DNA of 32,000 nt from Candidatus Heimdallarchaeota archaeon (lineage in GTDB: Archaea; Asgardarchaeota; Heimdallarchaeia; JABLTI01). Below are positions 22,474 through 26,643 of this stretch, one piece after another (the first letter of the stretch is position 1; each line of letters starts with the position of its first letter). The stretch covers positions 1 to 32,000 of the forward strand of contig JAUWKS010000033.1 in NCBI GenBank assembly GCA_030614005.1. Reading direction: 5' to 3'. The notes below the pieces were generated by a model that had not been told where the DNA came from, did not search any database, and worked only from the letters and a program-made list of their open reading frames with translations. Made by a program: the position numbers and the translations under genes.

Positions 22474-23952
22474 ATGGCTCCTGAAAAGAAGATAGTTGAG
22501 GCAAAAACATCATTCAAAGATGTTATCAATTCTATGAACTATAATATCAAATTAGTTTTTGCTTTCTATATTACGAGTTCTTTAGGTAGAGGTATTTGGA
22601 TGGGCAACGTTCTTAGCACATACATCTATCTTTTTTCTGAAAGTGGTGGAGGATTTTTAGGATTAAGTTCTAATGTTATTCTAGGGTTAACTTCAGCCGC
22701 TTCAGGAATTACTATGACTCTATTCGTTTTCCCCGCAGGATTTATGGCTGATAAGTTCCGACGAGATATTATCCTCAAATCTGCGACAGGCATTGGTATC
22801 GCAGCAATGGGATTTCTTATCTTTGGAAATTCAATAATTTTCATTTTTATTTCATTGTTATTGTGGGGATTGTTTAATGCTTTAGTCCGTCCTTCACTTG
22901 AAGCATTGTTTGCTGATTCTGTTGAATCTGGATACCGTTCAAAGATTTATTCTTGGGGACATTTAGTACGGCAGATAGCTATGGCGCTTGGACCTTTCAT
23001 TAATATTGGACTATTCTTCATTTTTGGCGATAAATGGGATTTAAATATTCTCCGGAGTGTCATGATCGTAGGCTTAGCTATCACATTAATTTCAATTGTT
23101 TTGATGTTTTTCTTCAAAGATGACAAAACACTTGGTGATGAAAGTGAAGAAATAGCTGAAGATGTTGTTACAATTGCACCAAGCGTTCAACAAAAGGAAG
23201 ATATCAATGAAAATGGAAGACACTTCAAGAATCGGCTTGCAAATCTAGATTCGGAGCGGAAAAAGAAACTCATACCGATAATTCTAGTCTCTAGCAATGT
23301 AATAATTGGTGTTGGTGCTGGGATGACAGTAAAATATTTCCCAATATTCTTTATGAATGAATATAACCTATCTCCAGTTTTGTTGCAAGTAGTAATGGGT
23401 GCTACTGCATTAGTTACTGGTTTATTTGGAGTTGCTGCACAAAAAGCATCGCTGAAATTAGGCCGAGTCCAAACGATATTTTACGTTCAGTTCATTGCTA
23501 CTGCTTGTTTACTTTTTATTGCTGTGTATCCACCAATTGCAGTCCTTATTCCTCTGTTTATTCTTAGAGGGGCATTTATGAATGCAGGTCAACCATTAAG
23601 TCGATCAATACTGATGGATATGATCCCTAAAACAAACCGGGGAAAATGGAATTCAGTTGAAGCAATTGCATGGGGTCTCTTTTGGAATGTATCAGCTGTT
23701 GCAGGTGGTTTCCTAATTGGCAACTCAAACAGGTACAATCTCTGTTTCGTCATCACTACCTTTGTCTATATTTTTGGCATGGTTCCAATTATTATATTAA
23801 TGCCTTTAGTAGGTAAAGAGAAAGAAGCTAAAATAAAAGAAAAACTTCTTGAAGATTCAATCTACAATGAGGATGGATTTGATGAAGTTTTTGGAGAATC
23901 AGAACATGTTAAAAAAGATGATAGTGAAAATGCTAAAATCGAAGTACTATAA
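22474..23952 (+). CDS. MFS transporter
   Basis: About 12 TM helices in two bundles with a charged central loop; motif A GFMADKFRRD; PSLEALFADSV; acidic C-terminal tail. Confidence 0.9.
   Translation: MAPEKKIVEAKTSFKDVINSMNYNIKLVFAFYITSSLGRGIWMGNVLSTYIYLFSESGGGFLGLSSNVILGLTSAASGITMTLFVFPAGFMADKFRRDIILKSATGIGIAAMGFLIFGNSIIFIFISLLLWGLFNALVRPSLEALFADSVESGYRSKIYSWGHLVRQIAMALGPFINIGLFFIFGDKWDLNILRSVMIVGLAITLISIVLMFFFKDDKTLGDESEEIAEDVVTIAPSVQQKEDINENGRHFKNRLANLDSERKKKLIPIILVSSNVIIGVGAGMTVKYFPIFFMNEYNLSPVLLQVVMGATALVTGLFGVAAQKASLKLGRVQTIFYVQFIATACLLFIAVYPPIAVLIPLFILRGAFMNAGQPLSRSILMDMIPKTNRGKWNSVEAIAWGLFWNVSAVAGGFLIGNSNRYNLCFVITTFVYIFGMVPIIILMPLVGKEKEAKIKEKLLEDSIYNEDGFDEVFGESEHVKKDDSENAKIEVL
23765..23952 (+). 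repeat. Left copy of an imperfect direct repeat (MFS 3' end); right copy ~26470-26643
   Basis: Exact 17-mer CCTTTAGTAGGTAAAGA at 23803-23819 and 26509-26525; similarity continues through CTTGAAGATTCA, GGATGGATTTGA, GTTTTTGGAGA, TAAAAAAGAT. Confidence 0.9.
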
Positions 23953-24372
23953 ATTACTATTCTTTCAAAATTAGCCATTAGCTATTCGCAAACTTACACA
24001 AAAAGTACTAATATAGCTATTTTGCACCTATCGCAAGGCGAGAAAGATTTTCATCTTCCAATTATTCCTAATATGAAGATGAGAACCCTCAACTCAATTA
24101 CTCAAGTTTGAACTTTGTTAAAAATTGTAGCTATTAGTTAATTTATTAACATATACAATTTATTCCCTCAGTTATACTCATTGTAAATTAATCTAATTGT
24201 GTGATAGTGTTTCACTATTGTAAATGAAGGAAATTGTTGTTATAATAGATTTACTTACTATAATTATGAGCGACAAAAAATTCACAAGACTTATATATAT
24301 CTAGAAAAATACTATCACTCAATATTACTTTGAAAGGAAGTATTAGAGAGAGATTAGATGTAAGAAATAGAT

Positions 24373-24399
24373 TTTTCTTCGAAATCTTTTCTTCGAAAT
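24373..24399 (+). repeat. Tandem 13-bp direct repeat TTTTCTTCGAAAT x2, 13 nt upstream of the 24413 start
   Basis: Copies at 24373-24385 and 24387-24399, each containing the TTCGAA palindrome. Confidence 0.6.
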
Positions 24400-24412
24400 A
24401 GGAAATGATAAG

Positions 24413-25585
24413 ATGAAAAAAATATCAACAATTAATACTTTGCTAGTATTTTTGGTTATAATTGGAACTGTTTTTGCAAATGTGAATGCAATAGTTTCAA
24501 TAATGCCAATAAATATAGTGGAAAGAGATGTGGAACGAGTAGACAATAAAACTACTATTAGTGATATAAACGAGTTTGATGTAAAGACATTGACAGAAAT
24601 TGCTGACTATATTAGTATTCAAGCAGCTCAAAATAATTTTGAGATTTCTGCTATGGTATATTCCTCAGGATTATTATTTGAATCTGACAACTCCCTAATA
24701 ATAATAGGTCATGGACATTTTAGTTCTAATGATCAATATTTTATTGCTGATTATTCAACAAATAGAATTAGCAAAATGGCTGAAAATAAAGAAGTGGTTG
24801 CTTTACTTGCTTGCTATTCCAATAATATTGGATTAGAAAATGACTTACAATTAACCTATGCAGATACAATCGATCTAATATCTGCGATACAAGATTTATT
24901 TAATCTACTAAGTTGGACAGAAAGCTCCCAACTTAATCCTATAAAGAATATACGACTTTTTGATTTGGATCCTGGACCCGGTGGATATGTTGAAGCAGTT
25001 TACTTGATGAATGGTGTAAGATATGCTCATTCCAGAAACAAGTTTTGGAATCTATATAGTGGACCTGCACGAGCAAATTTAGCAGCATACATGCAAAATA
25101 ATAAATATACACTTGTAGAATTAACCTTTTCTGGGATTTTTGCTGTTGAACAAGGAAGAAATACTGGTATATATGAATTAGAATACCATAAAGTTACTTA
25201 TGATACTTGGCTTACAATTGAAGGAGATACTAAAACGTATCTTAAAATTACTAATGTTAAACACAACGGAGTAAGAAAAAGAACAATGAATCGATTAATA
25301 AAACTTGATAAAGTAAATGCATTACTTGAAGCAAATTTCACTGGTGCTGGTCTTATAGGTTCTCTAGATCATCTCGGAGATATTTTCTTAGCTATTGGCA
25401 TTGCATTACTTACTTCGAGTACATTATTGATAATTGCTGCTAAGACTGCAACTTCTCTAGCTGCAGCAGTAACTGCTGCTTTGATTAAATTGGCTGCAGT
25501 AGCATTATGGTTTGCTGTTGCTTGCTTTGCTATTGCATTAATGCTTGCAATATCTTGTGTAATACTTCAACTCTGTTGGATTTAG
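24413..25585 (+). CDS. Secreted protein: signal peptide, clan CD-like His/Cys domain, DPGPGG linker, beta-rich region, long hydrophobic C-terminus (candidate toxin/archaeocin precursor)
   Basis: LIIIGHG (H100) and VVALLACYS (C134); DPGPGG at 186-191; residues 324-390 almost entirely apolar with no basic tail. The CDS is well supported; the function is inferred. Confidence 0.75.
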   Translation: MKKISTINTLLVFLVIIGTVFANVNAIVSIMPINIVERDVERVDNKTTISDINEFDVKTLTEIADYISIQAAQNNFEISAMVYSSGLLFESDNSLIIIGHGHFSSNDQYFIADYSTNRISKMAENKEVVALLACYSNNIGLENDLQLTYADTIDLISAIQDLFNLLSWTESSQLNPIKNIRLFDLDPGPGGYVEAVYLMNGVRYAHSRNKFWNLYSGPARANLAAYMQNNKYTLVELTFSGIFAVEQGRNTGIYELEYHKVTYDTWLTIEGDTKTYLKITNVKHNGVRKRTMNRLIKLDKVNALLEANFTGAGLIGSLDHLGDIFLAIGIALLTSSTLLIIAAKTATSLAAAVTAALIKLAAVALWFAVACFAIALMLAISCVILQLCWI

Positions 25586-25610
25586 AAAATAAAAAGGAGG
25601 AAATGTCAAT

Positions 25611-26051
25611 TTGAGTACTATAGCTAATGAACAAACAAAGTTACAAAAGAATGCATTTGTTGTTTACATGGTTTTAGCAATAAGTCAACTAATGCTTCTT
25701 ATACTTTCAGCGATTTTTCGAGCTATAACCAAGAAGCAATATCATGATGAACTTACAACACTAAATCATCAGTATTATTATAGCTTTACATTCTTCATGA
25801 ATCTTGCAACATATCTATTTTTCTTTGCAATGGTGATTTATTTCAGCTTTTTAAGTTCTAAAATTGAAAGTATAAAAAATGTTGATATAGATAAACTAGA
25901 TTTCGGAAATGCATTAGAAGAGATATTTAGACCTACAAGTCCAAAATTCAAACGAAGAAAGATTCTCTTAGTAATCGTTCTAGTACTTGCATTTCTAGTA
26001 ATGATATGTTCTCAAATCTATATACAAATTGGTATTGTGTTTATGTTGTAG
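25611..26051 (+). CDS. Small 3-TM membrane protein (candidate immunity partner)
   Basis: GGAGG at 25596-25600, TTG start, 25 nt after the upstream stop; three hydrophobic segments. Confidence 0.7.
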   Translation: MSTIANEQTKLQKNAFVVYMVLAISQLMLLILSAIFRAITKKQYHDELTTLNHQYYYSFTFFMNLATYLFFFAMVIYFSFLSSKIESIKNVDIDKLDFGNALEEIFRPTSPKFKRRKILLVIVLVLAFLVMICSQIYIQIGIVFML

Positions 26052-26484
26052 CTTATTTTAGAAGGCTATTCGTCTAAATTTTTTTTCTTTTTTCTGGGAA
26101 TTAACTGCTTATGTTAACAGATAAATAATTACGACAATTTTATAACAAAGTTCCAACTTACACAATTTGAGAAGAAAAAGACTTATCTGGACATTCTTTG
26201 TTCTAACACTTATTTCTCTAACTGCAACGCAAAGTTACTTGCTCATTATTCTATTTGTTGTGTTATGATATTCACATTTGGGGTAGTATTCAACCCAAAT
26301 ATCTTTTTTTTTCTTCTTTCAGCAATAATTTTTTTGTATCTCCGTCTTTTTAGAACGAAAAAAATTGATGGAATAAGTATACTATGTAACGCTATTCCAC
26401 CAAAAAACTATTCCTAAAATTGCAGGCATTTTTTCTTTATTAACAATAAGATTGTAGTTTGTTAATTGTTGTATCTATTATTGT

Positions 26485-26628
26485 ATGATTTCAATCATCA
26501 TATTAGTACCTTTAGTAGGTAAAGAAAAAGAAGAACTACTTGAAGATTCATTCGACAGTGTGGATGGATTTGAAGATGTTTTTGGAGACTCAGAACCAAT
26601 TAAAAAAGATTCTAGTGATGTTAGTTGA
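26485..26628 (+). pseudogene. Degenerate copy of the MFS transporter C-terminus (right repeat copy)
   Basis: Translates as MISIIILVPLVGKEKEELLEDSFDSVDGFEDVFGDSEPIKKDSSDVS vs MFS MVPIIILMPLVGKEKEAKIKEKLLEDSIYNEDGFDEVFGESEHVKKDDSE. Confidence 0.85.
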
Positions 26629-26643
26629 AAGCAAGGCACCTAA

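Follow-up and report, generated by a model that had tools for sequence, protein, structure and literature searches.

Integrative elements that occupy gene 3′ ends and CIMEs (PMC7563491; for example, ICESt1/3 in fda, PMC3234194) surround accessory cargo with target-derived repeats, and integrase-less elements that retain only att repeats are known among CIMEs. A different route, microhomology-mediated break-induced replication (MMBIR/FoSTeS), has a signature of complex joints, microhomology, short inverted pieces and a flanking duplication (PMC2621351) and has been described chiefly for eukaryotes and for amplifications in bacteria. We analyse here a locus of an Asgard archaeon that has features of both. 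The window is the whole stretch of 32,000 nt examined (positions 1–32,000, forward strand, of contig JAUWKS010000033.1, assembly GCA_030614005.1, Candidatus Heimdallarchaeota archaeon), from a metagenome-assembled draft genome of 126 contigs that is 90% complete. A major facilitator superfamily (MFS) gene there carries a second copy of its own 3′ end beyond a 2.53 kb insert. We favour, at about even odds (roughly 0.5), a single old templated insertion that was mediated by microhomology and duplicated its target.

With MMBIR/FoSTeS, or with DNA capture at staggered breaks, the locus shares templated pieces, microhomology at the joints, an inverted duplicate and a target duplication; it differs in that the event is ancient, the joints are blurred by ~18% divergence and the template is gone from the genome. 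The likeness to CIME-type elements extends to an intact gene, a displaced native end and empty sites in relatives, but here the repeats reach a length of ~175 nt and have diverged by 18%, truncated gene pieces edge the cargo, and neither an excised form nor a second element copy with an MFS tail was seen. Unlike integrative elements, the locus has no integrase in it or nearby; CIMEs by definition also lack one, which leaves room for a decayed element. Closest in cargo is a cassette array of a relative (G005) in which units are bounded by 23S rRNA tails: both loci, like integrase-less integron-like clusters, bound cargo by copies of an anchor gene 3′ end and show no recombinase, whereas ours is a single unit with a longer repeat that has diverged much further, and its anchor tail is not repeated elsewhere. 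The features of the locus are as follows (coordinates are those of the window).

22474–23952, plus strand: intact MFS transporter gene, 492 aa (Pfam PF07690, E 2e-32).
23762–23945, plus strand: left copy of the MFS 3′ end, which serves as functional tail (repeat search, alignment with relatives).
23804–23820, plus strand: 17-nt stretch identical to its partner at 26510–26526; encodes PLVGKE.
23938–23949, no strand: left junction, within ~5–10 nt that the 3′ flank of the native MFS gene shares with an ATPase gene read in antisense.
23940–24023, minus strand: truncated 5′ fragment of a P-loop ATPase gene (upstream region and 13–21 codons, ending immediately ahead of the P-loop; blastn, four-way alignment).
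24104–24167, no strand: left arm of a 64-nt inverted duplicate, within a 157-nt stretch (24024–24180) absent from the homologous G010 block.
24413–25585, plus strand: P0002, 390 aa (alignment A5, structure models).
25611–26051, plus strand: P0003, 146 aa, small polytopic membrane protein (homology).
26096–26159, no strand: right arm of the inverted duplicate, beginning 10 nt past the end of homology to the G010 block.
26160–26304, no strand: 145-nt stretch with no significant match in this genome, its relatives or a 328-aa neighbour gene.
26305–26472, minus strand: truncated, frameshifted 3′ gene end (last ~55 codons plus stop) whose homologue in G010 encodes a membrane-anchored protein of 496 aa (nucleotide match, tblastn).
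26469–26478, no strand: right junction, where sequence from within the 496-aa gene fragment meets sequence from within the MFS tail, with TTGT as microhomology.
26469–26637, plus strand: right copy of the MFS 3′ end, a displaced native tail that is now non-coding (repeat search, translation, tblastn).
26644–27165, minus strand: SnoaL-like gene, convergent with the MFS gene (Pfam PF12680).

The MFS 3′ end at 23762–23945 recurs at 26469–26637 over ~175 nt with ~82% identity, which bears out the duplication proposed in a first-pass annotation made from the sequence alone; the extent given there, ~180 bp at ~26470–26643, needs trimming to ~175 nt and an end of homology at 26637. Two aligned blocks, 23772–23827 with 26478–26533 (82%) and 23823–23927 with 26514–26618 (83%), have offsets 15 nt apart. 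The pair is the sole match in a genome-wide blastn (E 1e-29), and the MFS protein matches the downstream DNA in frame (tblastn, E 7e-12). A self-BLAST of the genome for similar brackets returned many short direct repeats and missed the MFS-tail pair at the settings used. The arrangement is that of attL/attR-like direct repeats with an identical core, here of 17 nt. In the two closest relatives, G010 and L041, the core is just as identical, which conservation of the PLVGKE motif accounts for, and no att core has to be invoked.

The left copy runs on unbroken from the MFS body, and its homology to the native L041 locus extends to 23944. The G010 and L041 orthologues are 85% identical to the MFS gene and both stop 5 codons sooner; the ancestral stop position, which the repeated stretch takes in, now reads AAA in the left copy (23935–23937). 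Junction and inserted DNA supply no more than the final 5 codons and stop (23938–23952). These observations do not sustain the view that the cassette arrived as a discrete integrative element with a replacement 3′ end: the left copy is continuous with its gene, and the insert ends in truncated pieces at microhomologies.

The right copy translates to a recognizable MFS tail with an open frame of 47 codons that includes an ATG, and its TGA (26626–26628) is placed as in G010 and L041. A spacer of 15 nt (18 nt between MFS and SnoaL in G003) separates it from the ancestral SnoaL stop at 26644–26646. The SnoaL stop at 26644 was correctly placed in the earlier annotation, and the copy does not abut it directly as claimed. 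The position of the stop and the native distance to SnoaL support the right copy as the native MFS end in its native context, as had been proposed. Its 15-nt in-frame gap, noted earlier as a deletion, is real and is absent from a strain variant of another study (run X2), in which the right copy keeps 15 extra nt behind 26519. The SnoaL gene of our strain has a premature TAA (26692–26694), with a read-through that aligns to the last 16 residues of its relatives; in runs X2 and X5 position 26694 is T, and the codon is Lys instead of this stop. Judged from these runs, gap and premature stop are both strain-level variants, and the original event did not include the gap.

The pieces between the copies come from unrelated loci: an ATPase fragment–P0002–P0003 block, the tail of the 496-aa gene and the 64-nt inverted duplicate. 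By blastn, the ATPase fragment is 81% identical over 74 nt to the intact gene of this genome (30300–30899) and 85% over 88 nt to that of L041; a four-way alignment gives 74.5% to the former, 79% to the L041 gene and 67% to that of G010 (contig C20). We tried the fragment as a second clock and discarded it, as the gene of this genome (74.5%) is no nearer than the L041 orthologue (79%); since it is no closer to the one than to the other, the fragment is by alignment an older paralogue. At the other end, the 496-aa gene fragment matches G010 C20 16692–16858 (77%, E 2.6e-30). This genome has no intact copy of the gene, which is also absent from the syntenic locus, and a search beside the fragment for a remnant of the 328-aa neighbour gene gave nothing significant. 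The arms of the inverted duplicate are 72% identical ungapped (80%, E 4e-7, in a genome-wide search that found two copies only); they bracket both intact cargo genes inside the insert, not at its outer ends, and one contig of run X3 diverges exactly at 26095. Searches of 11 relatives found no further copy, so this is not a repeat family.

The insert ORFs gave no recombinase, integrase or transposase match (Pfam, NCBIfam, PADLOC), and no transfer gene, integrase or excisionase lies in the insert or nearby; the single tyrosine recombinase match of the genome (PF00589) is on another contig (C58). The stretch 23600–27200 has no Rfam family or attC-type structured repeat, and no 23S-tail remnant was found in or near the insert (nhmmer E 84). 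A transposon or insertion sequence was rejected (no transposase, an inverted repeat that is internal and local only, a duplication of 175 nt), as was an integron cassette (no structured repeat, Rfam match or integrase). Both joints show microhomology, ~5–10 nt on the left and TTGT on the right, although chance may account for such short matches in AT-rich DNA of 30% GC. On this anatomy the insert is best described as a patchwork of foreign DNA, not a discrete or self-contained mobile element.

Both intact cargo genes are kept by selection. P0002 has a signal-anchor, a small α/β domain, a Gly-rich linker, a β-domain and a C-terminal hydrophobic helical hairpin; the α/β domain carries an invariant GHG...C.S motif, with GHG and C.S each placed after strands. 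Pfam, NCBIfam and PADLOC gave no match to P0002, and a protein atlas search gave no usable one. Structure models (pLDDT 79 and 93) retrieve weak matches to CHAT (Z 5.7), legumain (5.0) and caspases/metacaspases (4.2–4.7), intermixed with CheY and Rossmann folds, and the top Foldseek match is the MARTX CPD (weak, E 0.11); whole-protein fold searches were swamped by the generic C-terminal hairpin. From these models P0002 looks like a weakly caspase-like (clan-CD-like) membrane-anchored protein, not a proven toxin. Its family comprises 32 cluster representatives in 1.8 billion and is multicopy within the genus, and one to three P0003 paralogues stand after P0002 homologues elsewhere; as far as these searches reach, the cargo family is small, genus-restricted and multicopy.

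Among 11 relatives the MFS end is directly beside SnoaL or next to other content, and none has a second tail copy. The synteny check suggested earlier succeeded: empty sites, with MFS tail-to-tail with SnoaL, are present in G002, G003, G006, G008, G009 and L042. The site was also rightly expected to vary, with PhzF in L041, nothing in G010, and neither SnoaL nor the PP-loop gene in G007. Both sides of the MFS gene are variable across the genus; no flanking repeats were found around the M28 gene upstream of it. The cargo block itself occurs on G010 C20, cut at ATPase codon ~112 and not ~20, where it replaces 73 nt of the empty site of our genome and has no flanking repeat. In G005 the P0002–P0003 homologue pair lies between 23S rRNA tail copies, without the ATPase piece. 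Element ends thus do not recur across copies, those of G010 C20 and G005 differing from those of our insert. Scans of genomes and metagenomes with the MFS protein gave distant loci and G010 only, an exact protein look-up has no same-species or nearer assembly on record, and a search for intermediate alleles or closer relatives found none.

The right copy has private changes at ~5% per site, dS to G010 is 0.72–0.77 and neither G010 nor L041 has the insert, which together indicate that the insertion is later than the split from both; an old event without an integrase had been anticipated. In quartet patterns, 5 sites join the left and right copies, against 2 and 1 for the alternatives, a weak grouping of the two copies to the exclusion of G010 and L041; by distance, L041 is closer to the right copy (p 0.151) than the left copy is (0.178). 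Right of the core, the left copy has 12 private changes and the non-coding right copy 4 (one-sided p about 0.04), or 7 events against 4 once clustering is considered. Left of the core, the left copy has 1 private change, whereas the right copy has, within 31 nt, 4 private changes and 2 multi-state sites. A test on three taxa, the two copies and G010, suggested a strong left/right mosaic (Fisher p 0.009–0.03); adding L041 halved the left-side private changes of the right copy and weakened the contrast, and we set the mosaic aside as a basis for the verdict.

In the templated insertion that we favour, a break or collapsed fork would have formed ~5–12 nt past the MFS stop, in the short MFS/SnoaL spacer, and been repaired by copying DNA from other loci. 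Synthesis would begin at a short microhomology in an ATPase gene back-to-back with the P0002–P0003 pair, pass both cargo genes, take a 64-nt inverted copy of just-made sequence, and switch to the last ~170 nt of the unrelated 496-aa membrane-protein gene. It would then return to the original locus at TTGT, ~175 nt upstream of its exit point, so that the MFS tail is copied twice. The left copy would remain on the gene and keep it working while the right copy, beside SnoaL, decays; with the old stop lost, MFS reads 5 further codons (23938–23949) across the joint into the insert before it stops. The cut pieces of unrelated genes at the insert ends (ATPase 5′ end, frameshifted 496-aa gene 3′ end) argue for this course. 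The order of template switches is our inference; the anatomy, the empty sites and the age are documented by the alignments. This genome has neither a source locus for the block nor an intact 496-aa gene, so the template would be foreign or since lost, and the pieces could stem from several successive events. Duplication in place would not predict the excess of private changes in the left copy right of the core.

That excess is part of what speaks for single-crossover (Campbell-type) integration of an integrase-less circle carrying the cassette and an MFS-tail-like segment, at or near the core, by host homologous recombination or a recombinase in trans. Such an event, which comes near the model of the earlier annotation, would yield two hybrid tails, as when an integrative element restores the gene it targets, matching a mosaic in which the left copy is native-like left of the core and the right copy native-like right of it, and the greater proximity of the right copy to L041; the 23S-tail-bounded G005 pair and the precedent of CIMEs add to its appeal, and 23S-tail-bounded cassettes in the genus raise the prior for a recombination-site mechanism. 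Yet with L041 the contrast weakens, two ‘private’ sites of the right copy being common to L041, and purifying selection on a transmembrane helix explains the left part; the quartets lean towards sister copies, the core is conserved in all orthologues regardless and the insert ends resemble illegitimate joints. Neither L041–L043 nor 41 related genomes contain a further MFS-tail copy, and the excised or empty-site junction proposed as a check was absent from Logan contigs of 4 runs, although contigs drop rare forms. We regard such a crossover as the chief rival, possible but doubtful; the circle may itself stem from an earlier duplication of the templated-insertion type. More speculative, and rather unlikely in our estimate, is that this MFS 3′ end adds an anchor to an integrase-less traffic in accessory gene units across the genus in Heimdall-group archaea, in which units edged by copies of a gene 3′ end are looped out and re-inserted when the tail copies recombine. 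With similarly limited plausibility, the P0002–P0003 unit would move between 23S-tail arrays (G005) and protein-gene tails, the mosaic being the crossover footprint.

Import of the whole bracketed allele from a close relative, by double crossover in MFS and SnoaL, would turn the mosaic into donor–recipient differences. Strains of three studies do share the allele at ~1% divergence, and the X2 right copy, besides keeping its 15 nt, matches the left copy at 26538, a hint of gene conversion or exchange; but no donor was identified, and the body of the MFS gene shows a uniform identity to G010 (0.79–0.94 per 30 codons) with no foreign-identity block. We consider this improbable, and it concerns spread rather than origin, being compatible with either insertion mechanism. 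That the right copy is the decayed remnant of a second tandem MFS paralogue could find comfort in its open frame, but this is very improbable: tblastn covers residues 427–485 only and no MFS body lies upstream, the adjoining DNA belonging to a fragment of a different gene in the opposite orientation; the copy keeps its native distance from SnoaL, and no relative has a second paralogue at the site. As for an assembly artefact or chimeric contig, a draft metagenome-assembled genome invites the suspicion, yet runs of three independent studies yield contigs that pass through both junctions (one covers 23803–26493), the insertion being fixed in the samples of all three, and copies that differ by ~18% cannot mislead an assembler, which makes it barely conceivable.

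The locus is a well-documented but ordinary evolutionary insertion scar. Accessory genes entered an Asgard chromosome without a recognizable mobility gene, and the joints point to break repair, not to a dedicated recombinase. The target gene was spared by duplication of its end, and the displaced end dates the event. Elsewhere the family of this cargo sits in gene-tail-bounded arrays; were the crossover reading true, the logic of those arrays would extend to a protein-coding anchor.

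The 3′ end of the MFS gene recurs 2.7 kb further downstream in the window, where a repeat search returns two segments whose offsets differ by 15 nt:

23772–23827 against 26478–26533, 82% identity
23823–23927 against 26514–26618, 83% identity

The two copies share an exact 17-nt stretch and match only each other genome-wide (E 1e-29), and the right copy matches the MFS protein in frame (E 7e-12), so the duplicated tail described in the first-pass annotation is real. Alignment with the nearest relatives shows the left copy to be homologous to the native locus up to 23944 and the right copy to continue through its own stop (TGA 26626–26628) into native flank; this makes the duplicated unit ~175 nt long, with the ancestral stop position inside it. 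A decayed tandem MFS paralogue is contradicted, as no further MFS similarity was found 5′ of the right copy in any frame. The right copy keeps a putative ATG-initiated ORF of 47 codons (26485–26628; 52 codons in strain X2, known from a public run), whose predicted product would be a single hydrophobic helix with an acidic tail.

The genome is a 3.6 Mb draft of 126 contigs (~90% complete), with the window on contig C21. Its closest relative with a name is a "Candidatus Heimdallarchaeota archaeon" MAG, a label that MFS homologues in the protein database share. Genes and insert pieces, in order:

minus strand, p277
21062–22309, minus, M28 peptidase
22474–23952, plus, MFS
about 23940–26472, whole insert
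23940–24023, minus, P-loop ATPase 5′ fragment (codons 1 to 13–21 and upstream region), ending just before the P-loop
24024–24180, stretch missing from the homologous block of related genome G010, containing the left inverted-duplicate arm
24104–24167 and 26096–26159, left and right arms of a 64-nt inverted duplicate
24181–26085, intact cargo genes P0002 and P0003 with upstream region, collinear with G010 contig C20 (L013 4748–7340)
26305–26472, minus, frameshifted 3′ fragment (the final ~55 codons with the stop) of a gene homologous to the one for a 496-aa membrane-anchored protein of G010
26692–27165, minus, SnoaL-like
plus, PP-loop/GMP-synthase-like
minus, p276
plus, DUF362
30300–30899, minus, intact 199-aa P-loop ATPase

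In five related genomes (G002, G003, G006, G008 and G009) and ENA contig L042, MFS and SnoaL stand tail to tail, from 18 nt apart to a 4-nt overlap. Other relatives are arranged differently: a PP-loop gene directly follows MFS in G010 and probably in L043, p276 adjoins it in G007, and L041 (85.5% nucleotide identity) carries a PhzF-family gene, where a ~44-nt relic of the former SnoaL 3′ end follows the MFS stop. None of these relatives (G002, G003, G006–G010, L041–L043) has a second MFS-tail copy. The right-copy stop is the same codon as the MFS stop of L041 and G010, and 15 nt separate it from the ancestral SnoaL stop (26644–26646). The present SnoaL ORF is 16 codons short, ending at a premature TAA (26692–26694), and read-through past it still aligns with the C-termini of relatives; strains X2 and X5 have T at 26694, which changes this stop to AAA (Lys) and gives a full-length C-terminus as in relatives. 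These sequence comparisons show an insertion at the locus and identify the right copy as the displaced native MFS end, as the first-pass annotation had proposed from the sequence of the window.

The 5′ side of MFS is also variable. The M28 gene is missing from five congeners in which p277 adjoins MFS, and is an insertion relative to them, with no flanking repeat found around it; other DNA lies 5′ of MFS in G010, and other genes in L041 and L042. An M28 paralogue is present in a cassette array on contig C102 of the same genome. The 199-aa ATPase gene is intact in the window and L041, and the syntenic G010 locus holds only a C-terminal remnant (residues 153–189; L020, on contig C22, 10713–10823).

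The insert is composite. Its ATPase fragment is 81% identical to the intact gene of its own genome (30838–30921) over 74 nt and 85% identical to the L041 orthologue over 88 nt (blastn); a four-way global alignment gives 74.5% to the own gene, 79% to the L041 orthologue and 67% to the fragment on G010 contig C20. The inverted-duplicate arms have only two copies in the genome (E 4e-7) and none in 11 other family genomes (10 congeners and one of a second genus). No source was assigned to 26160–26304. The stretch 26305–26472 is 77% identical to the 496-aa gene of G010 (E 2.6e-30), of which no intact copy was found in the own genome, the syntenic site included. At the left joint, a patch of about 5–10 nt around CGAAG.A..A is common to the ATPase antisense and to the native flank 3′ of MFS, for which the right copy, L041 and L042 serve as reference; the left copy agrees with the native sequence as far as the patch and with the ATPase sequence beyond. 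The old MFS stop position now reads AAA, so that MFS extends five codons to TAA 23950–23952. At the right joint, the 496-aa gene fragment joins the MFS tail inside TTGT.

Four runs, belonging to three studies of a cold seep (2020) and of marine sediment (2024 and 2015), supplied Logan contigs, which we mapped on 22400–27400. The left joint is bridged by contigs covering 23809–24177 and 23875–24748, the right joint by contigs covering 26354–26763, 26296–26715 and 26408–26765, and a single contig covers 23803–26493; the joined (excised) form was absent from the Logan contigs of the four runs. An assembly artefact is contradicted by these independent contigs across both joints. Strain X2 (~1% diverged) has 15 additional nt behind 26519, equal to the five codons 'missing' from the right copy, which identifies that deletion as recent slippage between a pair of direct AAAGAAAAAGAAG runs. 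A 14–15-nt tandem repeat just 5′ of the P0002 start (24359–24400; also L014, a relative's locus, 5356–5504) varies in copy number: it is 14 nt shorter at 24373 in X2 and has ~six units in the paralogue on G010 contig C4.

By sequence divergence the duplication is old, with copies ~18% different and ~5% private change in the right copy; L041 and G010 lack it, placing it later than the split from both. The window and G010 MFS genes differ by dS 0.72–0.77 and dN 0.07–0.09, and the MFS tail is under weak constraint. We compared sites among the left copy, the right copy (with the 15 nt of X2), L041 and G010. Right of the 17-nt core (23804–23820/26510–26526), informative sites favour the two copies as sisters (5 : 2 : 1), with 12 private changes in the left copy, 4 in the right, 5 in L041 and 14 in G010; left of the core, the left copy has 1 and the right 4. 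The long branch of the left copy is unexpected for a coding copy beside a pseudogene. Its changes are clustered (23833–4, 23906–8, 23928–33), leaving 7 events versus 4, so we do not regard the excess as robust, and the left/right contrast of a three-taxon comparison became smaller after L041 was added.

The cargo has relatives at other sites. On G010 contig C20, a block of ATPase fragment (107 codons kept) and P0002-like gene, with three small membrane-protein genes, forms 4.0 kb between PALP enzyme and GNAT genes, with no flanking repeat found; on own contig C71 the same two genes are separated by 73 nt of non-homologous DNA. Lying at different sites with different end points, the block has moved at least twice. 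Genome G005 has four direct copies of an ~80-nt repeat, two of which enclose a pair of P0002/P0003 homologues. This repeat (~60–80 nt) also occurs in multiple copies in the own genome, and is 82–94% identical between species:

L018 (G005, contig C75): 3630–3710, 4397–4477, 6420–6500, 8367–8447
own contig C102: about 1377, 2237, 3120, 4791, 8791; also on C95, C71 and C112

On own C95 the 23S rRNA gene (25794–29052) and a copy of the repeat (29008–29083) overlap at the gene's 3′ end; on C102 the repeat separates HEPN-MNT, PIN, LRR and M28 units. No Rfam family or stable fold was found for it, and no copy in the window's region. G010 has its sulfotransferase and PALP genes side by side (L013, contig C20, 2652–2799); on own C71, 2.5 kb with two copies of the repeat (50475–52990) splits them.

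A single microhomology-mediated, template-switching repair event, duplicating its target, could have built the insert, and we give this reading about even odds (roughly 0.5). Such a signature has been described (PMC2621351). The reading draws on the gene-fragment ends, the microhomologies at both joints, the inverted 64-nt duplicate, the pieces from at least two loci with a flanking target duplication, and block end points that vary elsewhere; no recombinase was found for the insert, which also counts towards it. The gene-restoring integrative element of the first-pass annotation finds no support in this structure. The main alternative, which we consider less likely, has the chromosomal MFS tail recombine by a single crossover with a tail copy on circular DNA, as in CIME-like elements that lack an integrase (PMC7563491); in its favour are the left/right mosaic of the tail copies, the long branch of the left copy and precedent across the genus. 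A circle carrying a tail copy would presuppose an earlier duplication, and the repair and crossover readings are thus not exclusive.

P0002 has no family match, and its family is small, with just 32 cluster representatives out of 1.8 billion, and has 6–7 copies in G010 and one each in G005, G007 and the own genome. The protein has a signal-anchor, a 130-aa α/β domain, a Gly-rich linker, a β domain and a hydrophobic helical hairpin. The α/β domain carries invariant G99-H100-G101 and C134-x-S136. Its model (pLDDT 93) has weak matches, enriched in clan CD peptidases with generic α/β folds intermixed (CHAT, Z 5.7; legumain, Z 5.0; caspases, metacaspases, separase and MALT1, Z 4.2–4.7; best Foldseek match the MARTX cysteine protease domain, E 0.11), which leaves the 'toxin-like' label unproven. 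Over its initial ~600 nt, leader included (24373–24975), P0002 is 82–83% identical to paralogues on G010 contigs C4, C43 and C45, whose 3′ halves differ. Metagenome contigs of at least 90% identity have loose ends at 24755, 24820, 25876, 25885 and 26095, diverging inside both P0002 and P0003 and precisely where the right inverted-repeat arm has its inner edge. The shared 5′ halves and these breakaways suggest domain or module swapping within the family.

We regard the locus as a well-resolved yet ordinary insertion scar. Its modest added value is that it gives the genus's tail-bounded cassette arrays a counterpart at a protein gene.
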